Below are positions 509 to 35,929 of a stretch of 64,000 bases of DNA, piece by piece (the first letter of the stretch is position 1; every line of letters starts with the position of its first letter). The notes beneath the pieces are model-generated. The model saw nothing but the letters and a program-made list of their open reading frames with translations. It ran no database searches and was not told the origin of the DNA. The stretch is from [Eubacterium] hominis (lineage in GTDB: Bacteria > Bacillota_I > Bacilli_A > Erysipelotrichales > Erysipelotrichaceae). The DNA lies in NCBI RefSeq assembly GCF_014337235.1, contig NZ_CP060636.1. One strand, given 5' to 3'. The position numbers and the translations under genes were made by a program.

Positions 509-2608
509 GTGGTTAAGATAAAACTATCAAAAATCTTTTTTTTACAAAAATATATTTTAATGTCACTAGACTTAGCGTTTTATAGTGGTCAAATTATTAG
601 TTTTTATGGTGAAAGTGGTTGTGGAAAGACAACCCTTTTAAACACAATCGCATGTAGGAATGATTTCCTTTTAAAATATTATGTAAATGACCAGGATATT
701 TTAAAAATGTCGGATAAAGATAAGAAGAACTATCTTTTTCATCATATAGGATATGTAACACAAGAGCCAGAATTATTAGATGATCTTACAATTAGAAATC
801 ATATGAAACAGATATCTGAAATATATCAGATCAACATGGATACTAGTAAAATAATAAATAAATTAGAAATAGGAAAATTATTAGATAAGTATCCTAATCA
901 GTTATCAGGGGGAGAAAAATTCCGTTGTGCGTTATTGTTATGCATTATGAAAAATACAGATATCATCTTATTAGATGAACCAACAGCTGCATTAGAGGAT
1001 GAGCAGAAAAAGATTGTTATAGAACTATTAGAATATCTGGCATCAAAAGGAAAGACGATCATAATTTCAACGCACGATGATTTGATGATGAAACATAGTG
1101 ATGTATCTTATGAAATAAAAAATCAAGAAATAATCTGTGTGAAAAATAGTACAAATATCGAAGATGGAGGACCATTAAAACGATCATGTCAGAAAAATAC
1201 AAAAGTAGTAACTGATTATATGTTCAAGATGGAAAAACATCATCCATGGTATTATGGAATGTTAAGGGGATTATCTATATTCTGTATTATATTCTGTGCA
1301 CTAAGTTTAGAATTTAGTAATTATGCTTATGAAATAGACGCAAATAATATGAAAAGTACGATGTCTAATGAGTTGACAGTATATAAAAGATTATCTTATT
1401 TTGATGAATATGATTTGCTAGGAACAAATGAACCAATCACACATGAGGAAGTAGATTTTTTAAAGAATTTAGAACATGTGGAAAGAGTTGAATGGCGACT
1501 TGATACAGGTCTAGGAACAAATTTACTATCTGTAAGTGATGAAAATTATTTAAGTGAAGATAATGAATTAGCTGATATTCGCTTATTTAATGAAAGTAAA
1601 CAAATCATAAAGGATAGAACGAAGGATAACATATATGCTTGCACTTATTTACACGATGAAAATTATGATAGCTTCATTGAATATCAATTTAATAATGAAG
1701 GTATTTATTTATCAAAGGACTTAGCAAATTCTTTGACAGATGATTTATCTAGCTTAAAAGGTAAGTATATTAATTTCCAAATGCCAATCCCAGAATATGA
1801 TTCTTATGGGTTTGCATGGATATATGATGAAAATGAACAAGAAGTATTGATACATGTTCATGCTGGAAGTTTTGAAGAACTCACATTGCCGATTGCAGGT
1901 GTTTTAAAAGGAGCTGATATGGGGCTATATACTACTTTTGGAGAATTAATGTATATTGATCGAGATGTAATAGAGCCACTTATTGAAAAACATAAAAAGA
2001 CAGAATCTAGAACAATATATACCATGTTACCCGATAGTAAAGTTTTTTATATTAATGAATTACCTGAAAATGAAAAAGAGAATGTTGCGCATACAGTCGT
2101 GGAAACACCTTGGGAACCAACAGGGTATACAGTAATTGTAGATGACATTGATCATTTAGATGAAGTGATTCAAAATATTAGAGAAGCAGGATTAAGAGTT
2201 GATTCACAATTTGCCAGCTATAAAAGTATTAGCGAATCCACAAAAAATTTACAAAAAGCAGTGAAAATGATTTCCAAAGGAATGTTAGTCATTTTGTTGT
2301 GTATCTATTTGGTAATTAAATATAACAACCGAATAAGAGAACGTAAGATCAATCAATATTATATGCTGCAGTTGAATTTCACAAAAAATGAAATAAGGAA
2401 AGTGAAATTAAAAAGGTACTTAGAGAACACAATCATTGCTTTCATGATATCCTTTATCATATTTATGATACTAATATTCTTATTTGATTATATAGGTATT
2501 GGATTTACTGTATTGAATAAGAAAATCGTTTTCACATTCATATGTGCTAGTGTTATATTAGAATTTATAGTGCCAATAATTTTTGAAAGGAAGATGGGGC
2601 CTAAATGA
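509..2608 (+). CDS. MacB-like ABC transporter, fused ATP-binding domain plus FtsX-type permease (TM1, large extracytoplasmic domain, 3 C-terminal TMs)
   Basis: Walker A GESGCGKT, signature LSGGEKFR, Walker B IILLDEPTAALE, H-loop STHD; C-terminal hydrophobic helices; GTG start at 509 preferred over 500 for RBS spacing (aagagg). Confidence 0.75.
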   Translation: MVKIKLSKIFFLQKYILMSLDLAFYSGQIISFYGESGCGKTTLLNTIACRNDFLLKYYVNDQDILKMSDKDKKNYLFHHIGYVTQEPELLDDLTIRNHMKQISEIYQINMDTSKIINKLEIGKLLDKYPNQLSGGEKFRCALLLCIMKNTDIILLDEPTAALEDEQKKIVIELLEYLASKGKTIIISTHDDLMMKHSDVSYEIKNQEIICVKNSTNIEDGGPLKRSCQKNTKVVTDYMFKMEKHHPWYYGMLRGLSIFCIIFCALSLEFSNYAYEIDANNMKSTMSNELTVYKRLSYFDEYDLLGTNEPITHEEVDFLKNLEHVERVEWRLDTGLGTNLLSVSDENYLSEDNELADIRLFNESKQIIKDRTKDNIYACTYLHDENYDSFIEYQFNNEGIYLSKDLANSLTDDLSSLKGKYINFQMPIPEYDSYGFAWIYDENEQEVLIHVHAGSFEELTLPIAGVLKGADMGLYTTFGELMYIDRDVIEPLIEKHKKTESRTIYTMLPDSKVFYINELPENEKENVAHTVVETPWEPTGYTVIVDDIDHLDEVIQNIREAGLRVDSQFASYKSISESTKNLQKAVKMISKGMLVILLCIYLVIKYNNRIRERKINQYYMLQLNFTKNEIRKVKLKRYLENTIIAFMISFIIFMILIFLFDYIGIGFTVLNKKIVFTFICASVILEFIVPIIFERKMGPK

Positions 2609-4464
2609 TTGAAATAAAAAATATTCATATTGCATATCAGAATGAAGAACTAATCAAAGATGGATCTTTATCTTTTTCAGATGGAACTGTAAATGTAATC
2701 ATAGGGAAAAGCGGCATTGGGAAAACAGCTCTTTTATATCATATCGGATGTATTTCTGCAAAACATGATGAAACTTATAAAATTGACGGAGAGGAAATAG
2801 ATTTAAATAATGAATATGCAATCAGCCAAATTAGAAGGCAAAAGTTTGCCTATCTGTTGCAGGACTATATTTTATTTGATCAATATGATGTATTAGGTAA
2901 TTTAAAATTATATGCATCATTTAAAGGTCTGGAATATACGCAACAAGAATATCAAGAAATGCTGTCTATGGTAGGATTATCTGTTTCCCTTCATCAGGAT
3001 ATTACAACGTTATCTGGTGGTGAAAGACAAAGATTAGCGATTGCTTGTACCTTGTGTAAAAAACCTGAGATACTATTACTGGATGAGCCATCTAGTGCTT
3101 TAGATAAAGAGAATGAAAAGGTATTATTTGAAGTTCTAAGACGCCTTGCATATGAAAAGAAGCTTTGTATCATTATGGTCAGCCATAGTCAAACAGCAAA
3201 AGCATATGCGGATAAATTATATACAATCGAAGATCAAACAATAAAATGTTTAAAAGATACTTCGATAAACATTAACCATGAGGATACAGATCAAATGCAG
3301 CCATTACATTTGAGTTTCTATACATCTTACATAAAATATTTCTTTCTGAAATTTAGAAAACTGAACGTTTTTATGATGGCGATGTTGGTGATTGCGATTA
3401 GTTGTCTATGTGGTTCATTAACATATTATGATATTTATGCGAATAAGAGCTTTTCTGAATTAGAAAGCATTAGTAACAAACAGCTATTGATTACATCATC
3501 AAAAGATAATATTTACTTGGATCAACAGATAGATTATCTTAACGAAAAAGATATACAAAAATTTAGAGATTCAACAATAGAGTTACATCCATATTATCAA
3601 ATGTATGCATCAGTGATAGGACAAAATGAATGTATCATATTGCCATATTTTGATGATTTTCATATGAATGATGATTTATTTAAAACTTTAAATGGTGTCG
3701 CAGAGCATGGTATATATTTAAGTAACGATTTTTACTTAGGATTATCAGAAACAGATATTAAAGACAACAAGCTGCCAATGGATATACTTATACGAGAACA
3801 TAAAGGTGAAAAAGTAAAACAACATGTTCTGACAATTCAGATAGATGTAAAAGGAGTATTAGGTAGTAAAGAAAAGGTTTCTTATCTTCAAAATAGCACC
3901 AATTATATTTATATGTATTATAAAGATATGGAAAAGATGTATAAGCAAACGTCTGATAGTGATCAATATATTGCATATATTGCTACAGCAGACAGGTTTG
4001 AATATCTGGTTAATTTAAAAGAAAAAGTTTTATCAAATGGACTGGGAGTGAATGAGGGAACAATTGATATGCAATCACTTCAAGATACCCTCACAACCAG
4101 AGAGAAAATGCAAATGATGTTAGCTTGTGGTATTGCATTTATTTTTATCATGATTAATCTTTTCCAGCAATTGAATTATTTGTATAAGAGAAAAAAAGAA
4201 TTCGCTTTATTGATGATCAATGGACTGGCAAAAAGAAATCTAATATGGCTATGCCTTTTAGAACTGATAATGAAATTTGTGATAACAATGATTCTAGGAT
4301 TTATTATATTGGCAATAGGTGGAGTCTGTTTAAATGTTATGGATATATTGCTTGCGAATATAAAATTTGCGATATTAATGATATTCTTACTATTGGTATC
4401 AGTGATTACTACATATGCTTTATTCATTCAAAGATACACGCCAGAAAGTATATTAAGAGAGTAA
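2605..4464 (+). CDS. MacB-like ABC transporter, fused ATP-binding domain plus FtsX-type permease (second subunit)
   Basis: Walker A GKSGIGKT, signature LSGGERQR, Walker B LLLDEPSSALD; TM helix ~res 245-265 and 3 C-terminal TMs; start overlaps upstream stop (ATGA). Confidence 0.75.
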   Translation: MIEIKNIHIAYQNEELIKDGSLSFSDGTVNVIIGKSGIGKTALLYHIGCISAKHDETYKIDGEEIDLNNEYAISQIRRQKFAYLLQDYILFDQYDVLGNLKLYASFKGLEYTQQEYQEMLSMVGLSVSLHQDITTLSGGERQRLAIACTLCKKPEILLLDEPSSALDKENEKVLFEVLRRLAYEKKLCIIMVSHSQTAKAYADKLYTIEDQTIKCLKDTSININHEDTDQMQPLHLSFYTSYIKYFFLKFRKLNVFMMAMLVIAISCLCGSLTYYDIYANKSFSELESISNKQLLITSSKDNIYLDQQIDYLNEKDIQKFRDSTIELHPYYQMYASVIGQNECIILPYFDDFHMNDDLFKTLNGVAEHGIYLSNDFYLGLSETDIKDNKLPMDILIREHKGEKVKQHVLTIQIDVKGVLGSKEKVSYLQNSTNYIYMYYKDMEKMYKQTSDSDQYIAYIATADRFEYLVNLKEKVLSNGLGVNEGTIDMQSLQDTLTTREKMQMMLACGIAFIFIMINLFQQLNYLYKRKKEFALLMINGLAKRNLIWLCLLELIMKFVITMILGFIILAIGGVCLNVMDILLANIKFAILMIFLLLVSVITTYALFIQRYTPESILRE

Positions 4465-4496: not shown

Positions 4497-4782
4497 AATA
4501 TATTCGATAGGTAAAGCAAGTAAATCTTCTTTAAGATATGTCTTTTTATCATATTGGCAAAGGATAATGCCATTACCAATATTTTTATCAGAAATTTTGT
4601 TTAATACATCGAAATTTTTTGCCATTGTTTTTATAGGATTGGCAGTCATTTTTATTTCAATAGGATATATATAGTCAAGAAATTAATCGCCTATTATTTC
4701 GGCTAATTTAGAGTCTGACTCTAGATTAGCCGAATATTAGATAAAAGCAACTGTTTGATAAAAGAAATTAGATATTTGTAAA

Positions 4783-4815
4783 TCAAAAAACCATCCTCCT
4801 TCACGAGAATGGTTT
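4783..4815 (-). terminator. rho-independent terminator of the FAD-oxidoreductase gene
   Basis: minus-strand hairpin aaccattctcgtgaaggaggatggtt followed by TTTTT. Confidence 0.55.
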
Positions 4816-4823
4816 TCTTACAA

Positions 4824-6194
4824 TTACTTGTTTTCGTATAGGTATCTGGCAACGTAAACACCAGATGCACTTGCATGGGATAGGGAATGTGTTACGCCAC
4901 TACAATCTCCAATGACAAACAATCCTTCATGTTTTGTTTCTAGATGCTCATCGATTTCTACTTCCAGATTGTAGAATTTAACTTCTACACCATACAATAA
5001 TGTATCATCGTTTGCTGTACCAGGTGCGACTTTATCTAACTGATAAATCATTTCGATAATATCATCCAATTGACGTTTTGGAATTACAAGGCTTAAATCA
5101 CCAGGTGTTGCGGACAATGTTGGTGTCACAAAGCTTTCTGCGATTCTTCCAGCAGTACTTCTTTGACCACGAATTAAATCCCCAAAGCGCTGAACGATAA
5201 CACCACCACCAAGCATATTGCTTAAACGGGCAATACTTTCACCATAACCATTACTGTCCTTAAAAGGCTCTGTAAAGTGGTTGCTGACAAGTAAAGCAAA
5301 GTTTGTGTTCTCCGTATAACGGTTAGGATCCTCATAACTGTGACCATTTACAGTAATAATTCCATTGGTGTTTTCGCTAACAACAACACCTCTTGGATTC
5401 ATACAGAATGTCCTTACCTTATCCTGAAATTTTTGCGTACGATATACAATTTTACTTTCATATAGTTCATCTGTTAAATGAGAGAAGATACTATAAGGAA
5501 GCTCTACACGCACTCCAATGTCTACACGATTACTCTTTGTTTTGATACCTAATGTATCACAGACGTTACCCATCCATTTACTTCCACTTCTTCCTGTAGA
5601 GATAATACATTTTTTACCAGTGTATACCTGATCACCACTATGTAATGCATAACCATCTTCTAGTTTTTCCACGGAATCAATGTGGGTATTAAAATGAATT
5701 TCTACTCTTTCTTTCAGTTGTTCATATAGATTTTTTAAAACGACATAGTTCTTATCTGTACCCAGATGACGTACCTGTGCTTCTAATAAATGTAAATCAT
5801 TCTGCATACATTCTTTCTTCAACTTGGTATTACCTGTTGAGTACAGCTTTGTTCCTTCGCCACCGTTTTCAATATTGATCTTATCCACATATTCCATTAA
5901 ATCAATTGCCTGTTTTCTTCCCAGATATTCATAAAGTGTACCACCAAATTGATTGGTAATATTATATTTTCCATCAGAGAACGCACCAGCACCACCAAAT
6001 CCATTCATAATTGCGCAGGTTTTACAATTGATACATGATTTAATCTTCACACCATCAATCGGACATTTTCTTTTTTCTAAAGGATTACCTGTTTCAAACA
6101 GACCAATTTTTAATTCCGGCTGTAAACGTAAAGCTTCATAAGCAGAGAAGATACCACCAGGTCCAGCACCTACAATCACTAAGTCAAAATCCAT
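4824..6194 (-). CDS. FAD-dependent oxidoreductase (COG2509-like, with Cys-rich CxxCxxC segment)
   Basis: N-terminal Rossmann dinucleotide motif DLVIVGAGPGG; CINCKTCAIMNG cysteine cluster; 456 aa. Confidence 0.6.
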   Translation of the reverse strand: MDFDLVIVGAGPGGIFSAYEALRLQPELKIGLFETGNPLEKRKCPIDGVKIKSCINCKTCAIMNGFGGAGAFSDGKYNITNQFGGTLYEYLGRKQAIDLMEYVDKINIENGGEGTKLYSTGNTKLKKECMQNDLHLLEAQVRHLGTDKNYVVLKNLYEQLKERVEIHFNTHIDSVEKLEDGYALHSGDQVYTGKKCIISTGRSGSKWMGNVCDTLGIKTKSNRVDIGVRVELPYSIFSHLTDELYESKIVYRTQKFQDKVRTFCMNPRGVVVSENTNGIITVNGHSYEDPNRYTENTNFALLVSNHFTEPFKDSNGYGESIARLSNMLGGGVIVQRFGDLIRGQRSTAGRIAESFVTPTLSATPGDLSLVIPKRQLDDIIEMIYQLDKVAPGTANDDTLLYGVEVKFYNLEVEIDEHLETKHEGLFVIGDCSGVTHSLSHASASGVYVARYLYENK

Positions 6195-11003: not shown

Positions 11004-11551
11004 TATACCGCTTACATTTGAAAGGGCCAAAAAATTTTGAAAATTAACTATAAACAGTATTTAGCGAATGAATCTGATTTTTAAGAAAAATGGTTCTAGT
11101 ATCCACTTTATGGTAAAATTGGACGAAATATAGGAGAAAAAGCATAATAAAATGCCCTAAAAATGGGATGAAGAAACACGGGAATGGCTATGGAATTGGC
11201 TGGAAACCCGTGTTTTTTTCACAACTAAGACGAATTTCATATAATACGATAAAATAAGGCTTTTTAGATATTTGAATAAAAAAAGTAAAATAAAAAAATA
11301 AACCAATTTGTGATTGAATTGATAAATTTCACAAATGAAAATAAATGTAAGAAGTTGTCAAAAGTTGCCTGAAGTTAAACAAACGCCTTTGTTTAAGGGA
11401 TTTGGAATAAAAATACAAGCGAGAGCATAGGTATGAAATATTATATGTTGGGTAAAATAAGACCAAAAGACATGTTAAAAAACAAAAAAATTGGACAAGT
11501 TTTTGAAATTGTGATAGACTATAGCATGTTTTCATTAAAGGAGGAACATTC

Positions 11552-12337
11552 ATGAAGTCAAGACGAATCTTATTATTCGCTTTATTCACCTGTGTTTTCG
11601 CTTTATATGGATGTGTCAGTTCTGTATCAGAATCTGCTTCGCAAAGAAGCCTGACAGTCAATATCGACAAGATGACATTGAAGAATGTATCAGATAACAG
11701 TATGTTGCTGCCTATTAGAAAAGACAGCGTACAAAAAGAAGATATTATGCGTGTGATTAATGGAACGTATAATGATCAGCCAAGAGTTAGAAATTTAGGT
11801 GGTCAGCTTTCCACAAAGATCGCCATGGAGCAGGTAGCGAAAGACTACAAAAAACAGGTCAGAGAAAAACAGAAGAAATTAGAAGAAGAAAAGAAAAAAG
11901 CTGAAGCATTAAAGAAACAGAAAGAGGAAGAAGAAGCTTCTACCTTCGTAGGGAAACTTACAACTTATGGAGTAGACTGTTACGGCTGTTCATTTTCAAA
12001 TGGACGAGGCAGTACAGCAACAGGTATCGCTCTGGATATGTATCAGGGTGTACAACAGGCAGATGGAAGCTTTCAGCCTGGTATCAAATATGGCAACTAT
12101 TATGTAGTAGCCGCAGATCCTGGCATTCCAATGTATTCTATTTTGAAAATCAGCAACCATGGATTGAGTGGCAGTGGGATATCTTTAGATGAACCATTCT
12201 ATGCAATCGTATTGGATCGTGGCGGTGCCATTTATGGAGGACACTTAGATTTATATATCGGAAGTGAATCTTCAGGTGCTGTTCAGCATGTATTACAAAC
12301 AACACCAAAGGTACAAATTGTACGTTCTGGTGCTTAA
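11552..12337 (+). CDS. lipoprotein with C-terminal 3D (RlpA/MltA-like double-psi beta-barrel) domain and Lys/Glu-rich coiled linker
   Basis: lipobox ALYGC; C-terminal YGVDCYGC...YYVVAADPGIP...GGHLDLYIG motifs; RBS aaaggagg. Confidence 0.5.
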   Translation: MKSRRILLFALFTCVFALYGCVSSVSESASQRSLTVNIDKMTLKNVSDNSMLLPIRKDSVQKEDIMRVINGTYNDQPRVRNLGGQLSTKIAMEQVAKDYKKQVREKQKKLEEEKKKAEALKKQKEEEEASTFVGKLTTYGVDCYGCSFSNGRGSTATGIALDMYQGVQQADGSFQPGIKYGNYYVVAADPGIPMYSILKISNHGLSGSGISLDEPFYAIVLDRGGAIYGGHLDLYIGSESSGAVQHVLQTTPKVQIVRSGA

Positions 12338-27843: not shown

Positions 27844-28136
27844 GGTTAAAAAAAACAGATGATTTTTATAGATCATCTGTTTTTTGAATGAATAGATTTA
27901 CTTGCAAGAAGTAAACAAGAAGCCAAGATTTTCTGCTATGGCGATACAGTTTTTATAAATGAATGCTTTTAGACGTGCAAATGCTACTTTGATTTTCATA
28001 TCAAGCACCTCTTTTATGGCTGAAATATCATGCCTGTTATCTTCACTTATATCGTAACATAAGAAGTAGTTTAAAGCTATAGATACATAAAAAAAGTTAC
28101 AGAGTATATTTGTAACTTTTTTAGATATGATAAAGC

Positions 28137-30056
28137 TTATTCTTTGTCTTTATCAGGAAGCTCTTTTGTTACGATTTTGGATAACTGAGTTAAGATATCT
28201 TCATTTCCATTCAACGTAATACTTTCGACATTTTCTGAAATCTTTTCTAAATACTCTAATTCTTTTAAATGAGATAGTGCTTTACTATCTTCCATCATTT
28301 TGGCAGTATCCATCAATGTTTTTGTGGACGCAACATCTGCTTTCTGGGAAATGATAGATGCTTCTGCTTTTTTCTCCGCTATCAAAACAGTATTCATGAT
28401 ATCACGTATTTCATTTGGCAACGTAATATTTGTGATTCCAGCATCACTGATCTCAATAAATAAAGAAGCTCCTTTTTCTTTTAAACGTTTCGCAAATAAA
28501 TGGTTAATATTTTCTTTCTCATCTATGAATTCTTCAATACGATAGTTCCCAATGAGTTCACGCAGATTTAATTGAATCAATGAGTATAACTGATGCACAT
28601 AATTGTCAATTTCTGTATAAACTTGAATATAGTCAATTAGACGATAACGACATACAATATCCAAAGAAATGGTAACTTTGTCTTTGGTCAAAACTTCTTC
28701 ATCATTGATACGCAGCTGTTTTAAACGTATATCAAAAATATCGACATGTACTTTTGTCTTAGTATTCCAAAAATAATAGGTACCTGCATCCAAAATACAG
28801 ATAAGTTTATTATCATAGAATAAGCGTGCTTTTTCAAATTGAGATACTTCTATTTTCTGATACAGCGTATCTGGAATTGTATGGAAGATATAGCGTGGTA
28901 CATCATCACTTACAAGTGGATGTGATATATCAATAATGGTAAAGGTATGTTTTTCCAAGACATTCCAAAATGCATGTTTTCCTGTAGACAGACAGTCTTT
29001 GAAAATTCCATCAATGTAATGCAAGGCCAATTCTTCATCTTTCACTTCCACAATTGTGATAAATGGCATCACTTTTTCGTTTTTTATCAATAATTCCATT
29101 GGGCAATGGGCAGAAAACACTGGACGTTTCATCCATTGTACCTCTAAATCTACACGTGTCTTTGATTTCCAGAAATAATAAGTACCTGTGTCCAATAATG
29201 CCTCAAATACGTTATCGTAAAATAAGAAGGCTTTTTCATCCTGTGATATTTCTTCTTTTTGATAAAGTGATGGATCTAGCAAATCAAAGATATAGCGTGG
29301 AATATCATTTGTTGCCATAGGATTTGAGGTATCCACCAGTGTAAATTCATGATGATCAAGCGTATTCCAGAATGCATATTTCCCTGTCGTCAGACATTCT
29401 CTAAAAACACCATCCACAAAATGTAATGCAAGTTGTTCATCCTTGACTTCCACCATTGATATATAAGGCGCAAGTTTCTCATTTTTCACAAGCAGTTCTA
29501 ATGGACAGTTGATGGATTCAACTGGTAGTTTCATGGATAGAATTTCTAAATCAATATTGACTTTCGATTTCCAGAAATAATAGGTGCCGGCATCTAAAAT
29601 ATCCGTTAAGACATGGTCATAAAACAACAACCCTTTTTCATCCTGGTGGATGTCACCTTTGTGAAAAAACTTTTGATCCATTTGATCAAAGATATAGCGT
29701 GGGATATCATTTGCGACCATTGGTGTTGAGGTATCCACAATCGTAAATTCATGGAAATCAATGCAGTTCCAATATGCGTATTTTCCAGTTGTTAAACATT
29801 CTTTAAATGCACCATTGATAAAATGTAGTGCCAACTGTTCATCCTTTACTTCCACAACGGATGCCTGTGCTTGCAGTTCTGGATCCTTCAATAAGATATC
29901 CAAAGAACAGTTTTCTGAGTGAATTGGCTGGTCTAAAGATACGACTTCAATATCGTTATTGCCAAAGATATGATGATTGCCACTTTCCAGCAGTCTTGTA
30001 AATTTATTGTTTTTGAATAAAAAACCTTTCTGATTTTCATTAATGATGACTTTCAT
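28137..30056 (-). CDS. SPFH/band-7 domain protein with three tandem ~140-aa N-terminal repeat modules (soluble, no TM)
   Basis: C-terminal SPFH signature (LTKDKVTISLD...YR..D, ISDAGITNITLP, AEKKAEASIISQ); three internal repeats sharing VEVKDEQLALHF / TGKYAxWN / NDIPRYIFD; RBS gggagg. Confidence 0.7.
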   Translation of the reverse strand: MKVIINENQKGFLFKNNKFTRLLESGNHHIFGNNDIEVVSLDQPIHSENCSLDILLKDPELQAQASVVEVKDEQLALHFINGAFKECLTTGKYAYWNCIDFHEFTIVDTSTPMVANDIPRYIFDQMDQKFFHKGDIHQDEKGLLFYDHVLTDILDAGTYYFWKSKVNIDLEILSMKLPVESINCPLELLVKNEKLAPYISMVEVKDEQLALHFVDGVFRECLTTGKYAFWNTLDHHEFTLVDTSNPMATNDIPRYIFDLLDPSLYQKEEISQDEKAFLFYDNVFEALLDTGTYYFWKSKTRVDLEVQWMKRPVFSAHCPMELLIKNEKVMPFITIVEVKDEELALHYIDGIFKDCLSTGKHAFWNVLEKHTFTIIDISHPLVSDDVPRYIFHTIPDTLYQKIEVSQFEKARLFYDNKLICILDAGTYYFWNTKTKVHVDIFDIRLKQLRINDEEVLTKDKVTISLDIVCRYRLIDYIQVYTEIDNYVHQLYSLIQLNLRELIGNYRIEEFIDEKENINHLFAKRLKEKGASLFIEISDAGITNITLPNEIRDIMNTVLIAEKKAEASIISQKADVASTKTLMDTAKMMEDSKALSHLKELEYLEKISENVESITLNGNEDILTQLSKIVTKELPDKDKE

Positions 30057-30227
30057 AAAATTCCTCCCATCATGATTTCTATATGTAGGATTATACTAGA
30101 AATTAGAAATGAAAACACGTATATTTTAAAAGTTCCTGTGAAATATGGAAATGGGTTGTAAAAACAAGGCGAATTGTACAGATTTGACTAGTGATTTATG
30201 GAAGAAAAAACAGGTGGAATACACCTG

Positions 30228-31451
30228 TTAAGATGATGCTTTGAAATTATACAAAGGATGGATCGTTTTTATAATATCTACGGTATCTGCGATATTTTTT
30301 GTGATATCTTCCATGGATTTATAAGCCATAGGGCATTCATCCAGCGTATCAGAATTAATAGATGTAGAGAATATTCCATCCATTGTATTCGCAAATTCAT
30401 CTACCGTAAACAATTCTTTTGCTTTACCACGGCTATATAAACGTCCGGCACCATGAGGCGCAGAACAATTCCATTCATCATTGCCTTTACCAACACATAT
30501 CAAAGAGCCATCACGCATATTGATAGGAATCAATAAGATTTCACCTTCTTTTGCGGAAACTGCACCTTTTCGTATCATATTATTTTCATGATCAATATAA
30601 TTGTGTATTGTTTCAAAGTGATCAAAATCATCCAGTTTCATATCAAACATATGCTGGATTATGGTTTCCGCAATCATTCGACGATTTAATTTCGCAAATT
30701 CCTGGGCAATATTCATATCATGTAAGTAATCATCACGATAACTTCCTTCCAAGTAACAAAGCTCTTTTGGTGTTTTGATTTCCTTTGCTTCAAAGCTGTT
30801 TGCCAGTGCAACAAGGGCAGCTTGTATTTCTGATTTACGACCAGCTTCTTTATATTCTTTGATAATCTGTTCACGCTGTTCAAATAATTTATCTTTCCCA
30901 CGCATAAGATCATAAGCAAGATTCTGGTAGTAATCTGCGATTTGTTTACCTAAATTACGGCTTCCTGTATGAATCACAAGATAGTGATTTTCATCATCAT
31001 CTATATCAATTTCGATAAAGTGATTTCCACCACCAAGTGTCCCAATACTACGTTCAAAACGTCGTGTATCTTTTAATGAACGATAACAGCGAAGTTCTTG
31101 AATTGCTGGGAAACGTGTAATTCTTCCTGGATGTACATCAAAGCCATTAGGGACATATTTACGAATAACTTCATCCAGCTTCACAAAGTCAATAGGGGAT
31201 TTTCCCAGATTGACACATAACATACCACAACCAATATCCACACCAACAATATTAGGGATAACACGTTGATTTAAATCGGCAGTAAAACCAATGACACAGC
31301 CAGCACCTGCATGTACATCTGGCATGATTCTGATTTTACAATCTTCCACAAAGCTTTGATCACAAAGGGTTTTTATTTGCTCCAACGCAGTATCTTCCAC
31401 AACATCTGTGTATACAATGGCATTGGTATATGTTCCTTTAATTTCTATCAT
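30228..31451 (-). CDS. rtcB: RNA-splicing ligase RtcB (3'-phosphate/5'-hydroxy nucleic acid ligase)
   Basis: MPDVHAGAGCVIG, GGGNHFIEI, HTGSRNLG, HNY and SAPHGAGR motifs; 407 aa. Confidence 0.95.
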   Translation of the reverse strand: MIEIKGTYTNAIVYTDVVEDTALEQIKTLCDQSFVEDCKIRIMPDVHAGAGCVIGFTADLNQRVIPNIVGVDIGCGMLCVNLGKSPIDFVKLDEVIRKYVPNGFDVHPGRITRFPAIQELRCYRSLKDTRRFERSIGTLGGGNHFIEIDIDDDENHYLVIHTGSRNLGKQIADYYQNLAYDLMRGKDKLFEQREQIIKEYKEAGRKSEIQAALVALANSFEAKEIKTPKELCYLEGSYRDDYLHDMNIAQEFAKLNRRMIAETIIQHMFDMKLDDFDHFETIHNYIDHENNMIRKGAVSAKEGEILLIPINMRDGSLICVGKGNDEWNCSAPHGAGRLYSRGKAKELFTVDEFANTMDGIFSTSINSDTLDECPMAYKSMEDITKNIADTVDIIKTIHPLYNFKASS

Positions 31452-32554
31452 GATAATACCTCCTGTTTCTGTATAAATGCTGCTAATTGTGTAAGGATAT
31501 CACTATTCCCATTTAAGGTGATATTTCCTACATTTTCGCAGATTCTTTCTAAATATTCTAATTCTTTTAAGCGATATAAAGTTTTGTTCTCATCTAATAA
31601 TTTAGCGGTATTCAATAAAGAACGTGTTGACGCAACTTCTTCCCTTCGTGTAATGACATTGGCCTGTGCGCGTTTTTCTGCGATTAAAACCGTATTCATA
31701 ATCTCACGCATATCACCTGGTAAAATGATATCTTTGATACCAGCATCTGTGATATCAATGTAAAGAGAAGCAGCCCGCTGTTTTAATTGTTCAAAAACAT
31801 ACGTACCGATTTCTTCCTTGTTTTCTAACAGTTCCTCCATCTTATAGTTGCCAATATATTCACGTAATACCAACTGTGCCATGACATATAATTGTGTTAA
31901 ATAATCATCAATTTCAGTAAGAATTGCGACACAATCAGTAACACGATAATGAGCAACCATATTGATACGTAATGTGACTTTATCTTTTGTCAATACTTCC
32001 TGTCCTATGACATCTAACTGTTTCAATCGCATATCTACAATATCCACATCAACCATTGTTTTTGTATTCCAGAAATAATAAATACCAGCATCTAAAACAG
32101 TTATGAACTTCTGATCATAAAACAAGCGACCTTTTTCATATTGCGCAATGTTTACTTGTTGATAATAAGAACGTGGAATGTTCGCAAAGATATAGCGTGG
32201 AATATCATCCTCTACCATTGGTTCTTTTACATCTATATATTGTACTTTATGATTGTTTTCTATGTTCCAGTAAGCATACAAACCAGTAGGCAGACATTGT
32301 GAAAATTTACCATCGATATAGTGTAATGCATATTGTTCATCACCAACATCTATAATGGTAGCGTTCTTCTTGATTTCAGGAAACTGAATAAGTTTCTCCA
32401 AGGAACAATACATGGATGAAATTGGCTGGTTGATAGATAATAATTCTACTTTATCATTTGCGAAACAGTGATATGTTCCTGCATATAATAACTTAACAAA
32501 TTTACTTTTCCGATATAATAAACCTATTTGATTTTCATTAATTTTAATTTTCAT
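31448..32554 (-). CDS. SPFH/band-7 domain protein with one N-terminal repeat module (paralog of 28137-30056)
   Basis: same module plus SPFH C-terminus (LTKDKVTLRINMVAHYRVTD, ITDAGIKDIILP, AEKRAQANVITRR); stop overlaps rtcB start (ATGA); RBS aaaggagaaaa. Confidence 0.7.
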   Translation of the reverse strand: MKIKINENQIGLLYRKSKFVKLLYAGTYHCFANDKVELLSINQPISSMYCSLEKLIQFPEIKKNATIIDVGDEQYALHYIDGKFSQCLPTGLYAYWNIENNHKVQYIDVKEPMVEDDIPRYIFANIPRSYYQQVNIAQYEKGRLFYDQKFITVLDAGIYYFWNTKTMVDVDIVDMRLKQLDVIGQEVLTKDKVTLRINMVAHYRVTDCVAILTEIDDYLTQLYVMAQLVLREYIGNYKMEELLENKEEIGTYVFEQLKQRAASLYIDITDAGIKDIILPGDMREIMNTVLIAEKRAQANVITRREEVASTRSLLNTAKLLDENKTLYRLKELEYLERICENVGNITLNGNSDILTQLAAFIQKQEVLS

Positions 32555-32744
32555 ATTTTTCTCCTTTTATTTGATGATATGCATTCGTTTCAGCGGCAAA
32601 ATCATTAAGATTATGAATGTATCCTGCGAGTAAAAACTGGCAGAATAGATGCATAATCGATATCCTAACTTTGGCAAGGCTGAAACAAATGAGATCTGTG
32701 AAAGCATCCAATCATCTTTTACTTAATAATTAGTCCCAAACTAA

Positions 32745-32790
32745 TTGCAGGAGTCGAACCTGCGTAACGCCATGTTAAACCATTTTTTTA
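32745..32790 (-). other. tRNA T-arm-like hairpin (GCAGG-TTCGACT-CCTGC) plus adjacent hairpin in the presumptive leader of the SPFH-rtcB operon
   Basis: minus strand reads ...GGCGTTACGCAGGTTCGACTCCTGCAATTAGTTTGGGACTAATT; no D-arm or anticodon arm, so not a tRNA gene. Confidence 0.3.
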
Positions 32791-32945
32791 ATAAGCGGAT
32801 AGTTTCCGAAATACACACAAGTAAAGTTACTAGTGCATCGTTGTGGGATGAGAACCACTTCCTTGACCGCAAGGTTATTATAGGAAATATCAGGAAATAA
32901 ATCGTGAAAAAAAAGTTGCGAACGATAAATATATGAAATTTTTTA

Positions 32946-32995
32946 CCGATTATACTCGAAAACGACAGATTAGACTCAAGGCATTGACAAATAGC
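32946..32995 (-). promoter_or_regulatory. promoter/operator-like repeat copy 1 (minus strand TTGAGTCTAATCTGTCGTTTTCGAGTATAAT)
   Basis: ~48-bp direct repeat also present at 33200-33250 (~42/48 identical); minus strand carries a TATAAT -10-like box oriented toward the SPFH-rtcB operon. Confidence 0.4.
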
Positions 32996-33199
32996 TTTGA
33001 TTATGAAAAACTCAAATGAAAAAATACCGTTGACAACCATAGAAAGCCCGTTTAGAACCAGCCTATTGACAAAGATATAAAATAGTGAATGAATAAATTC
33101 ATATTCCTGTTTACCAATTAACCTCAAAAGCTAACCAGTTATCCCTTTTCTATTGACATAGAAGGAAATACTTGATTGAAATATATATAAACAGAATAC

Positions 33200-33250
33200 A
33201 GATTATCCTCGAAAATTACAGATTAGACTCAAGCTATTGACAAAAAGGGT
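33200..33250 (-). promoter_or_regulatory. promoter/operator-like repeat copy 2 (minus strand TTGAGTCTAATCTGTAATTTTCGAGGATAAT)
   Basis: direct repeat of 32946-32995; GATAAT -10-like box. Confidence 0.35.
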
Positions 33251-33339
33251 CACACATGATTTCTATATACAGATACTTTAAAACATTATTTACACATAAA
33301 AAACCTTGGAACTAACCAAGGCTTATACATAGTGATTCA

Positions 33340-34248
33340 TTATTTTATAGATAATGCTTTTTGTGACAATAAACGCCTTTTAATCTGATTAATAAAATGA
33401 TTTGGTTCTATGACTTTCACAAATGGACCAAAAGATAAAACGCGAATCAATAGTTCAGATTCATCTTCTCCATCATAAAACACTTTGACTTGATAATGGT
33501 TTTCATCTAACCGTTTCGCTTCTTTTTCAAAATGCGCAAAGTGTAACATCACACGCTCTAACGCATTACGCTCATCTACTAATTCCATCACAAAGTATTT
33601 CTTTTCTTCTGTACGCACATCTTTTGGATAATGGAATGCTTCTTTGATTTCTACCTCTAATATACGAGAAATATTAATTGTATATTTTTTATGATGATAT
33701 GCGATAATCAAACGGAACTTATCATCTTTTTGTGAATATTCTAATTGAAGTGGCATGCCATGAATGTTAGCACGTTTGCCTTTTCCTGTCACAAAATAGA
33801 CGGATACAGAGGATTGATCATGCAAGGCTTTGCGAATTGTCTTAAAGTTTTTAATATAAGCGGGATCAAAGTAATCATCATGATCATGGTACTGATCAAA
33901 ATAGACAATGTCATCCATTTGATAAAGTGGCATAATATCATCCAAGCCTTTAATAGACACATCAAATAATTGAATACGAGGATCAAGCAAAATAGCTTTT
34001 AACCAGCGTTTTTCTATGAGTGTAAGCGGCATAGTAGAAGGGTGTTTTACAGGTGTATGCATATCATCACATAAAAGCGGCCATTGATGATTCTTTAGCG
34101 CAGGCTCTATCGTTAAAAAGCTTTCAGAGAAGGCTGTTTCCTGAATGATGGAATGCATGATTTTCTCATTCAGGGTTCCTTTTATGGCTTGATCAATGAT
34201 GCGAGCAACACTTTCATAGTAGCATCCATATATCTCATGAAATAACAT
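33340..34248 (-). CDS. WYL-domain protein with C-terminal WCX-like extension (PafC/BrxR-like regulator, no obvious N-terminal HTH)
   Basis: GKRANIHGMPLQLEYSQKDDKFRLIIAYHHKKYTINISRILEVE WYL-like core and VLSFGPFVKVIEPNHF C-terminal motif. Confidence 0.55.
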   Translation of the reverse strand: MLFHEIYGCYYESVARIIDQAIKGTLNEKIMHSIIQETAFSESFLTIEPALKNHQWPLLCDDMHTPVKHPSTMPLTLIEKRWLKAILLDPRIQLFDVSIKGLDDIMPLYQMDDIVYFDQYHDHDDYFDPAYIKNFKTIRKALHDQSSVSVYFVTGKGKRANIHGMPLQLEYSQKDDKFRLIIAYHHKKYTINISRILEVEIKEAFHYPKDVRTEEKKYFVMELVDERNALERVMLHFAHFEKEAKRLDENHYQVKVFYDGEDESELLIRVLSFGPFVKVIEPNHFINQIKRRLLSQKALSIK

Positions 34249-35483
34249 TATGCATCACCTCCAATATCATATAATTCATACATTGCTTTTAAGTCAGCGC
34301 GAAACTGATTTTCAACAGTACGGTTTGAAAAATCCAATTGTTTTATACGACAGATAAAGGTACGAATCCAGGGAATCATTTCGTTTGTATCAAAAACATC
34401 AGCACGGAAAACTGCGGTATTTTTATCTAATCGTTCCACTTCACCAATCCGCTTTTCACGAACTAAGCGCTGATAGATAAATTCTTCATAATCAGAAAAG
34501 TAAATCTGAAATTCTACATGCTCGAGATGAATATTATGACTGCTGCAGCGAACACCCCACATATGTTTCTGTAGAGAAGATAAAAGTTCACGTTTTTTAT
34601 CAAATTGTGAGGAAGGTTCTAATAAGGTCACATGATCCATATAATCCATACGATAAGAAGAAATACGATGATAATGTTTATGATATGCGAATAAGTATTG
34701 TCGACCATTTTGTGTACTCACAAAGATTTTTAAGGGAATCAAATCCCACAAGATATTTTTTTGATGCTGCTTATGATGAATACGCACTTCACGTTTCTCC
34801 TGGATTGCGCACAAGAGTTGATATAAAATTTCACTGTCTAATGCGTGTGCGATATAGTAATGTTTAAAAGTAAAAATGGAATCTTGAACAGATAATTGAT
34901 GCATCAGATAATTACCAATAACACCCACCATTCCCATCTGTGCAAAGAAGCAAATAGCATCATGACAGGAAGAAAGATCTAGCGTATCGGCTCTGTGGTA
35001 GGATAATTGTTTACCTGTTTTTTCACTGACAATCAATCCAAGCTGTGTATACTCCTTTAACTTTTTTCGTACTGTAGCTTTATCAATCATCAAAGGATCC
35101 ACAAAGCAGGAGAGGTGGTCCTGATCGATTTGATCTATGATTTCATTTAATGTATAGCATTGCTCTGGATCATAAAGGATATCTAATAAATAAAAATGCA
35201 GTGTGATATCAATATCTGTAAATGATTTGGCAAGAAATGCCTGATACAAAGGATTTTGTGTAGTATGACGGCTGTCTATGGATAAGAATACATTTTTTCC
35301 TTCTTCACTCTGAGTAAATCGCATATAATCTTTTAGATAACTTTCAATTCTTCTTCGTTCGTTATCATAAGAGCGCAAACTTTTCTGATCAAAATCCTGT
35401 CTACTTTTAAAACCATATACATAAAAATCAATCATATATGTTCTGATTTTCTCAAAGTTTTTTATTAGTTCTTGATATGCCAT
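34248..35483 (-). CDS. HTH + WYL-domain transcriptional regulator (PafB/BrxR/CapW-like)
   Basis: HTH-like segment LNEIIDQIDQ...ATVRKKLKEYTQLGLI; WYL-like NGRQYLFAYHKHYHRISSYRMDYM; 1-nt overlap with downstream WYL gene; RBS gcgaggga before MAYQELI. Confidence 0.55.
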   Translation of the reverse strand: MAYQELIKNFEKIRTYMIDFYVYGFKSRQDFDQKSLRSYDNERRRIESYLKDYMRFTQSEEGKNVFLSIDSRHTTQNPLYQAFLAKSFTDIDITLHFYLLDILYDPEQCYTLNEIIDQIDQDHLSCFVDPLMIDKATVRKKLKEYTQLGLIVSEKTGKQLSYHRADTLDLSSCHDAICFFAQMGMVGVIGNYLMHQLSVQDSIFTFKHYYIAHALDSEILYQLLCAIQEKREVRIHHKQHQKNILWDLIPLKIFVSTQNGRQYLFAYHKHYHRISSYRMDYMDHVTLLEPSSQFDKKRELLSSLQKHMWGVRCSSHNIHLEHVEFQIYFSDYEEFIYQRLVREKRIGEVERLDKNTAVFRADVFDTNEMIPWIRTFICRIKQLDFSNRTVENQFRADLKAMYELYDIGGDA

Positions 35484-35560
35484 ATCTATCCCTCGCAATC
35501 TTTTCTAATCATAGCAAATAACCAAAAGAAAAGAAAGCACTCTTATGCTTTCCTTTATGA

Positions 35561-35929
35561 TTATCTACGATAATTTTCCATTTTCTCAAAAGTTTCATCA
35601 CTGATGACATGTTCGATATGACAAGCATCCTCATCTGCATTTTCTGCGCTGACACCTAGCACATCCTGTAAGAAATTGGAAATTGTCTGATGACGATGAT
35701 AAACACTTTTAGCGAGTTCTCTACCAGCGTCTGTCAAATGGATATCCCCATAACTTTCCTGTAAGACATACCCTTTTTCTTTTAATACATTCATTGCTTT
35801 ATTTACAGAGGGTTTACTGACACTCATACGATTAGCGACATCCACACATCGAATTTTACCGGTACCTTCTAAAATCAGCAATGTTTCTAAATAATCTTCT
35901 AAAGATTCACCTAATAACACATTGATCAC
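35561..35929 (-). CDS. DtxR/MntR-family metal-dependent transcriptional regulator
   Basis: N-terminal HTH LEDYLETLLILEGTGKIRCVDVANRMSVSKPSVNKAM and metal-site residues; 122 aa. Confidence 0.75.
   Translation of the reverse strand: MINVLLGESLEDYLETLLILEGTGKIRCVDVANRMSVSKPSVNKAMNVLKEKGYVLQESYGDIHLTDAGRELAKSVYHRHQTISNFLQDVLGVSAENADEDACHIEHVISDETFEKMENYRR

Follow-up and report, generated by a model that had tools for sequence, protein, structure and literature searches.

In the 64,000-nucleotide (nt) stretch of [Eubacterium] hominis DNA analyzed here (contig NZ_CP060636.1; hereafter, the window), a gene for the RNA ligase RtcB lies between the genes for two paralogous SPFH (Band_7) proteins. Upstream of these three genes are a structured leader RNA and two WYL-type regulator genes. 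All of these elements are on the minus strand, and their surroundings are housekeeping genes (mnmE, tatD, and an ABC transporter). In the direction of transcription, with protein lengths in amino acids (aa), the principal features are:

34248-35498, minus strand: WYL-domain regulator 1, 416 aa (Pfam WYL PF13280 and PADLOC WYL)
33340-34248, minus strand: WYL-type regulator 2, 302 aa (PADLOC WYL)
32877-32923, minus strand: conserved promoter block, which aligns with a block kept in 78 loci
32874-32861, minus strand: 5' hairpin CCUUG-CGGU-CAAGG
32713-32848, minus strand: leader RNA domain 1 (tRNA-like), covariance model R1
32763-32747, minus strand: canonical T-arm GCAGG-UUCGACU-CCUGC, within domain 1
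32578-32695, minus strand: leader RNA domain 2 (long irregular stem), covariance model R2
31448-32554, minus strand: SPFH protein, 368 aa
30228-31451, minus strand: RtcB RNA ligase, 407 aa (Pfam RtcB and catalytic motifs)
28137-30056, minus strand: second SPFH paralog, 639 aa

A preliminary description of this DNA had given the coordinates, lengths, and strand of the three open reading frames (ORFs) from 28137 to 32554, and these agreed with ours. The ATGA overlap that it reported between the stop codon of the 368-aa gene and the start codon of rtcB was present as tcATGAta. The profile searches that it had proposed, with Pfam PF01145 and PF01139, found Band_7 in both flanking proteins and RtcB in the middle one. 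The RtcB match scored 205.2 bits (cut-off 27; E = 2.7e-60), and the residues that bind metal and guanosine monophosphate (Asp/Cys, Asn-His, His, and HGAGR) aligned with those of Pyrococcus horikoshii RtcB in the motifs D..C, NHF, H.GSR, and HGAGR, as had been claimed; the sixth ligand, the remaining histidine, was assigned only from an IHNY motif in the sequence. The enzyme is intact and is predicted to be a 3'-phosphate/5'-OH ligase. The Band_7 matches were at aa 421-574 of the 639-aa protein (E = 4.4e-29) and at aa 149-306 of the 368-aa protein (E = 3.8e-27), and Pfam reported no family over the N-terminal regions of either. All three genes are under purifying selection, with a ratio of nonsynonymous to synonymous substitution rates (dN/dS) of 0.04-0.09.

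The two SPFH proteins are clearly related to each other. Over 366 residues, the 368-aa protein was 50% identical to the 639-aa protein (residues 267-632 of the latter; E = 3e-132), and its N-terminal module also matched residues 1-177 and 133-310 of the longer protein. The four modules in the window, one in the short protein and three in the long one, aligned with 38-46% identity and 34 invariant columns, in agreement with the one and three copies originally counted. To describe the module itself, we used an AlphaFold2 model of the 368-aa protein, run with a 112-sequence alignment, in which the predicted local distance difference test score was ∼90 over the N-terminal 200 residues. This model contains three five-stranded beta units in series (residues 2-40, 65-108, and 131-174); the third leads into the SPFH alpha/beta core, which is followed by a helix at residues 280-341. 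Because of this anatomy, we interpret the ∼140-aa module as two extra copies of the beta unit that opens the SPFH domain. The preliminary description had thus correctly recognized a reiterated ∼140-aa unit, but its division of that unit into an SPFH-like strand and a novel core has to be replaced by two five-stranded beta units. Counted in this way, the 368-aa protein consists of three beta units (one N-terminal module plus the unit of the SPFH domain proper), the SPFH core, and a long C-terminal helix, and the 639-aa protein consists of seven beta units (three modules plus the SPFH-proper unit), the SPFH core, and a long helix.

The top structural matches of this fold were stomatin, prohibitin, HflK/C, erlin, and flotillin, all of which are cage-forming proteins, and the longest aligned stretch in the structure comparisons was that of the major vault protein (MVP), with 260 residues, or 417-440 columns in another search. 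With beta repeats first, then the SPFH domain and finally a long helix, the layout recalls that of MVP; no vault-repeat or MVP family was found among the Pfam matches of the window proteins at E ≤ 0.1. The apparent resemblance to MVP is architectural only.

We then collected proteins carrying the module with an exhaustive profile search that used the four window modules and a threshold of E ≤ 1e-3. The profile matched 805 clusters at the 50% identity level, in proteins of ∼367, 496, 637, 787, and 894 aa, and those checked end in Band_7. The one-module protein has thousands of relatives, mostly in metagenome-assembled genomes of Clostridia. Modules were 59-77% identical within one protein vs. 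36-47% between proteins, and this greater likeness within a protein fits repeated, lineage-specific tandem duplication, by which the number of modules (1, 2, 3, or more) varies. Two giant matches (2775 and 1599 aa) were LVIVD-repeat proteins that aligned over short stretches only, and they were treated as spurious. Only in the Amedibacillus lineage (family Erysipelotrichaceae), to which the window belongs, was rtcB again followed by a second SPFH gene (loci L083-L087); outside this lineage, a single SPFH gene with one, two, or three modules lies upstream of rtcB. The arrangement of rtcB between two paralogs, to which the preliminary description drew attention, is therefore real in the window but confined to one lineage. 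The SPFH part of the 639-aa protein is closer to the neighboring 368-aa protein (57%) than to three-module proteins elsewhere (49%), and dN/dS relative to its orthologue in locus L087 is 0.04. This closest kinship to its own neighbor, together with purifying selection, indicates that the 639-aa paralog is a maintained lineage-specific duplicate.

The conservation of the gene neighborhood was surveyed in 80 species-level Bacillota genome loci, and the counts below refer to the loci with room for the gene in question. In 58 of 77 loci, the gene directly downstream of SPFH was rtcB. The 302-aa WYL-type gene was upstream of the SPFH gene in 64 of 76, typically separated from the SPFH gene by 450-600 nt, and an orthologue of the 416-aa WYL gene preceded the 302-aa gene in 58 of 68. 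Because this linkage is conserved in many genomes, we regard the locus as a dedicated RtcB-centered module, and in this respect the survey bears out the earlier proposal, including its emphasis on the adjacent WYL regulators. Where SPFH genes with two or three modules fill the same slot, they are followed by RtcB and by an RlaP (PF10127) nucleotidyltransferase (L081, 11168-11935; L082, 10743-11510). RlaP is an RNA-ligase-associated enzyme, and the window locus contains no RlaP gene. At L059, an RlaP-like ORF (11158-11907, recognized by eye from its N-terminal sequence) directly follows the SPFH gene, and rtcB is absent there.

These data bear on the possibility that the SPFH proteins are no more than ordinary scaffolds of the slipin or HflK/C type, serving membrane microdomains or modulating proteases, that happen to share a stress operon with rtcB and have no function related to RNA. 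Their database names (“slipin family protein” at NCBI, “regulator of protease activity HflC” at IMG) and the fold matches to stomatin and HflK/C would suit such a role. However, neither protein contains a transmembrane or hydrophobic hairpin segment (the highest 19-residue Kyte-Doolittle means were 1.1 and 1.0), as the preliminary description had noted, and the HflK/HflC equivalogs TIGR01933 and TIGR01932 (NCBIfam) scored only 19-35 bits against cut-offs of 159 and 134. An identity as HflK/HflC or as a membrane slipin was ruled out on these two grounds, and the flanking proteins, far from being unrelated HflK/C-type membrane proteins, are paralogs of each other. Stomatin, HflK/C, prohibitin, erlin, flotillin, and QmcA form membrane cages and have proteases or NfeD as partners, whereas the window proteins have no anchor, carry extra N-terminal beta units, and are accompanied by RNA-repair genes; no NfeD or FtsH partner was found in the locus. 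They are invariably linked to the RNA described below and frequently to genes for RtcB, RlaP, and WYL proteins. Since the anchor is missing and the genomic partners are RNA-repair genes, a membrane-scaffold role is contradicted, and we consider it very improbable.

The preliminary description treated the 785-bp intergenic region upstream of the 368-aa SPFH gene (32555-33339) as empty. This was incorrect, because the region contains a structured RNA of two domains. The sequence GGTTCGAnTCC was found on the SPFH strand in 61 of 65 equivalent intergenic regions, and covariance models were built for domain 1 from 14 other genomes (R1) and for domain 2 from 36 other genomes (R2). Domain 1 consists of the hairpins P2/P2a, the T-arm, and the hairpins P5 and P6. 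When R1 was run against the 64-kb window, it gave a single match (32848-32713; 34.5 bits, E = 2e-07), and 78 of the 80 loci had one match each, which in every case lay on the strand of the SPFH gene and upstream of it. The two misses were loci without room upstream, so the RNA is present in 78 of the 78 loci with room. In a 79-sequence alignment of domain 1, 96.6% of the cells were paired, vs. 80.7% in shuffled alignments, and 19 of 26 pairs showed compensatory changes, a level reached by 0 of 500 shuffles; slid controls collapsed. The distance from domain 1 to the start codon is fixed (median 271 nt), and this spacer is itself conserved and folds as a long multi-helix stem with abundant covariation, which is domain 2. 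Its internal loops are also conserved (GCCUUGCC / GGAUAUCG / GCCAG / CUCGC / UUGCCGC). R2 likewise gave a single match in the window (32695-32578; 52.1 bits, E = 3.6e-13), which ends 23 nt before the SPFH start codon. In an unfitted MAFFT alignment of domain 2, 29 of 32 pairs were compensatory and pairing was 92.3%, vs. 72.4% in shuffles, none of which reached the observed value. Domain 2 was found in 11 further loci.

The RNA also occurs upstream of SPFH genes with two and three modules, and a metagenome search that started from the RNA found 26 loci, with an SPFH gene downstream in 21 of the 22 that had enough sequence. On one metagenome contig (L088), both RNA domains are present at 2858-3213 with no SPFH gene in the 1.1 kb downstream; the upstream ORF resembles, by eye, a transposase fragment, and this may possibly be a rearranged or decayed copy. 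In L007, a 222-aa ORF without a Pfam match (800-1468, plus strand) lies between RNA domain 2 and the SPFH gene, and similarly long leaders were seen in L018, L046, L055, L079, L090, and L110. This ORF is a possible additional component of the system.

Known RNA classes did not account for the leader. In the window intergenic region, Rfam gave no match at E ≤ 1. With Rfam 15, none of six loci searched gave a match at the gathering score; the isolated T-arm alone matched, to tmRNA, at 17.7 bits against 47. ARAGORN called no tRNA in the window, and it called tRNAs in 5 of 65 intergenic copies. The labels “tRNA gene” and “known RNA family” were rejected because both programs were blank on the window intergenic region, and the leader RNA was found only through comparison of related loci. 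The cloverleaf that ARAGORN drew in the five copies was also rejected as the conserved fold, because its acceptor stem shows no covariation. An outer stem pairing 5' UUCAC.GCG with 3' CGCC.GUGG was dropped as inconsistent between sequences when inspected by eye; the 3' segment instead forms a covarying hairpin of its own. Many copies have a second T-arm-like hairpin, GAUGGGGUUCAACUCCCC. Among the intergenic regions of L001-L080, ∼24 of 61 copies have an anticodon-like 7-nt loop, C/U-U-NNN-A-A, in the hairpin just 5' of the T-arm (e.g., L001 5246-5380 and L006 8539-8727). Given the few ARAGORN calls and the unsupported acceptor stem, the RNA is tRNA-like only in its T-arm and, in these ∼24 copies, in the anticodon-like arm.

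The position of the RNA also suits the main rival to the interpretation that we develop below. According to this rival, the RNA is only a cis-acting leader, riboswitch-like or protein-binding, that sets the expression of SPFH and rtcB, and the SPFH protein aids RtcB without it; such a leader could, for example, bind the WYL proteins or respond to tRNA that is damaged or uncharged. In every case, the RNA immediately precedes the operon's first ORF, shares its strand, and keeps the fixed distance given above; domain 2 almost reaches the start codon in the window, and a terminator-like site separates domain 1 from the SPFH gene in only 2 of 79 loci. Where the 222-aa ORF is inserted, the RNA stays before that ORF and not directly before the SPFH gene. 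On the other hand, the ribosome-binding site is outside the conserved helices, and no alternative terminator/antiterminator pair was seen. The T-arm, with the anticodon-like arm of some copies, is a hallmark of trans-acting tRNA mimics such as YrlA, and the RNA is tied more tightly to the SPFH gene (78/78) than to rtcB (58/77). We regard a purely cis-acting role as possible but somewhat unlikely.

Upstream of the RNA, nearly all loci share a block of the form GCTGCGAACT-N6-AGTTCGCAGC-T7-CCGTG, followed after ∼20 nt by an extended -10 element, TGgTAaAAT, and then by the 5' hairpin. The window block comprises GTTCGCAAC (32923-32915), T8, CACG, and then a perfect TATAAT -10 element (32882-32877), so it retains only the right half of the palindrome, the left half having been lost. 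Transcription is predicted to start near 32870. The palindrome is retained even where no WYL gene lies upstream. It may serve as an operator, as a terminator for the WYL genes, or as both at once. The conserved plan of the locus is thus a WYL pair, a palindrome with an extended -10 promoter, a structured leader RNA, and a soluble SPFH protein translationally coupled to RtcB.

Regarding the regulators, the 416-aa protein matched Pfam WYL (PF13280) at aa 223-291 with 25.1 bits (cut-off 21.8) and PADLOC WYL at 5.5e-14. The 302-aa protein matched PADLOC WYL at aa 132-293 (6e-10), and its Pfam WCX match was sub-threshold (16.6 bits vs. 23.9). The two genes share one base, 34248, where regulator 1 ends and regulator 2 begins. 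PafB and PafC are tandem WYL regulators, and as in their case, two adjoining WYL-type genes precede what is here a putative damage-response operon. The window proteins differ in that they showed no detectable similarity to each other in a pairwise comparison (E = 0.28) and neither had a relative in a sequence search against solved structures. Directly upstream of the pair is a gene of the DtxR/Fe-dependent-repressor family (35561-35929, minus strand). In L081, a distant three-module locus, a DtxR-family gene (4702-5052, opposite strand) also adjoins the WYL pair, with feoA/feoB downstream; this linkage may be coincidental.

The WYL regulators and the anticodon-like loops raise the further possibility of a conflict or defense module, in which the RNA would be a decoy or sensor for the anticodon nucleases of phages or bacteriocins, the WYL proteins the trigger, and RtcB the enzyme that reseals tRNAs. 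Among the loop triplets, GUN was the commonest (GUC 7, GUA 4, GUG 1, and GUU 1), followed by GAC (3) and UUU (3). GUN triplets are the anticodons of Asp, Tyr, His, and Asn tRNAs, which are the targets of colicin E5-type nucleases, and the cleavage products are RtcB substrates. The WYL regulators also match defense-library profiles. A 2016 study by Burroughs and Aravind, in the account given by a 2018 preprint on YrlA (10.1101/312249), cast systems of this kind as responses to RNA damage in conflicts. Nevertheless, PADLOC contained no model matching the SPFH proteins or the window RtcB, no relatives were found in 2.9 million viral contigs, and the neighbors in the window are housekeeping genes. 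The loop triplets vary across copies, and the window RNA has no clear anticodon-like loop. We therefore consider a defense module quite unlikely.

The preliminary description considered the SPFH–RtcB association to be experimentally uncharacterized, which is consistent with the literature, but it also presented the association as unfamiliar, and this part does not stand. This is not a first sighting; the linkage is of a predicted, experimentally uncharacterized kind. As reported in the 2018 preprint (10.1101/312249), Burroughs and Aravind (2016) described RtcB as a neighbor of a Band-7 protein and of a predicted tRNA associated with Band-7, named b7a-tRNA, and Band-7 plus a tRNA-like RNA was proposed as scaffold and cofactor for RNA ligation. 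The same source states that b7a-tRNA and YrlA occasionally trade places, each occurring in the Band-7 or the Ro60 context, and that b7a-tRNA was without experimental validation at that date. The window matches the system so described in having RtcB, an adjoining Band-7 gene, and a tRNA-like RNA. Judged by the description of b7a-tRNA in that preprint, the window-type RNA may differ from it, as its conserved fold is not a cloverleaf and it has a second, larger stem domain. A 2026 study (PMC13086221) concerns PaFlo8 (PA14_60630), an SPFH gene inside the rtcR-rtcA-rtcB locus of Pseudomonas aeruginosa; it resembles the window in placing an SPFH gene within an rtc RNA-repair locus but is proteobacterial and accompanied by RtcR and RtcA. 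Our literature search found no further paper tying RtcB to SPFH proteins and no RNA-repair experiment on an SPFH–RtcB system. The Ro60 (Rsr)–YrlA/YrlB–RtcB operons, such as Salmonella rsr-yrlBA-rtcBA, likewise combine a ring-shaped or scaffold RNA-binding protein with a noncoding RNA that has a tRNA-like domain in an rtcB operon, the scaffold and RNA-binding role being a prediction in the case of the window. In contrast to those operons, the window locus has no TROVE/Ro60 gene and no Rfam Y-RNA match, it has a WYL pair in place of RtcR with its CARF domain, and no RtcA was detected.

Based on the gene content, the conserved linkage, the structure and covariation of the RNA, the protein folds, the repeat anatomy, and the purifying selection, we infer, with a probability of roughly 55%, that the locus belongs to the “Band-7/SPFH plus tRNA-like RNA” class of RtcB RNA-repair operons, in which an RNA-bound SPFH protein would act as a scaffold for RtcB. 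The predicted parts of this scheme are the oligomerization, the binding of RNA by protein, the induction through the WYL pair, and any role in repair. The WYL pair would sense a nucleic-acid damage signal and turn the promoter on. The leader RNA would be made together with the mRNA and, whether or not it is cut free, would bind the SPFH protein. Like its solved SPFH relatives, the protein may use its SPFH domain and long helix to build a large ring or cage, which would be cytosolic, given that no membrane anchor is present, and whose wall would be lengthened by the additional beta units (3, 5, or 7 in each chain). The RNA–protein scaffold would then recruit or enclose RtcB and present broken tRNA-like substrates for sealing, as Ro60 and Y RNA are proposed to do in other rtcB operons. 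In Amedibacillus, the long seven-unit paralog may co-assemble with the short one, by analogy with HflK/HflC or prohibitin-1/prohibitin-2.

Several observations weigh against the scaffold interpretation. The position of the RNA in the 5' leader fits a purely cis-regulatory role equally well. rtcB is not adjacent in 19 of 77 loci, which suggests that the SPFH–RNA pair may have a role without RtcB in cis. The RNA copy in the window is the weakest scoring of the family, and it has neither the anticodon-like arm nor a ∼100-nt linker seen elsewhere. The palindrome and T-run, taken above as a candidate operator, could be just the terminator of the upstream WYL genes. In addition, deletion of PaFlo8 gave no phenotype in assays of growth, virulence, motility, biofilm formation, and oxidative stress, RNA damage being untested there (PMC13086221). 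A bolder extension of the scaffold interpretation, which we hold to be rather doubtful, is that the proteins form a soluble, vault-like ring or barrel with a wall height set by the number of beta units (3, 5, 7, or more). The RNA would nucleate or occupy this barrel, RtcB would be enclosed in it, and the short and long Amedibacillus paralogs would co-assemble, yielding an RNA-repair compartment that would be a bacterial counterpart, and possibly a relative by descent, of the vault of eukaryotes.

What the present analysis contributes is the two-domain RNA, the identity of the repeat unit and its variable copy number, the conserved WYL genes with the promoter block, and the lineage-specific second paralog. 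These findings bear on which RNAs bacterial RtcB repairs in the cell and on how the enzyme reaches them. Represented by thousands of proteins in gut and rumen Bacillota, the cassette is widespread as an alternative to the arrangements with Ro60/Y-RNA or RtcR/RtcA. It also offers testable parts, namely a covarying RNA that is absent from Rfam, a soluble SPFH protein with variable repeats, candidate operator and promoter sequences, and a host that can be cultured (Amedibacillus dolichus). If a cytosolic SPFH cage does surround an RNA and a ligase, SPFH biology would reach beyond membranes, and there would be a bacterial model for the workings of vault-type ribonucleoproteins.

The remaining features of the locus concern its transcription:

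33301-33324, minus strand: terminator-like hairpin after the WYL genes (9-bp stem and T-run)
33247-33197 and 32994-32944, minus strand: a pair of 51-nt direct repeats with 86% identity, at a spacing of 253 nt
30209-30229, minus strand: intrinsic terminator-like hairpin over the rtcB stop codon (8-bp stem with 4 G-C pairs, then TTTTTTCTT)
30095-30090, minus strand: TATAAT before the 639-aa gene, absent from the promoter-scan list
28089-28122, minus strand: AT-rich hairpin and T-run after the 639-aa gene, a possible terminator read from the sequence

Each 51-nt repeat contains TGTCAAT and a promoter-like TTGAGT-19-[G/T]ATAAT, and the repeats were seen only in the window's intergenic region, through which five TGTCAA[T/C] motifs are scattered. 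The direct repeats and these motifs explain why the gap is 785 bp here instead of the usual ∼500 bp. The hairpin over the rtcB stop codon had been noted in the preliminary description, as had the TATAAT, and both are present, but the differential expression suggested for the 639-aa gene does not follow from them. In this AT-rich region, the number of promoter-like sites is what chance predicts (41 found vs. 41.7 expected), so an independent promoter for this gene is unproven and was rejected as a feature. The terminator scan, set to a minimum of 3 G-C pairs, did not call the hairpin at 28089-28122. A 33-aa ORF, MKIKVAFARLKAFIYKNCIAIAENLGFLFTSCK, with a ribosome-binding site is present downstream of the 639-aa gene at 27898-27999 (minus strand) without a gene call in public assemblies. 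After it come a hairpin and T-run (27892-27848), to which Rfam wrongly gives a weak score as a group II intron D5.

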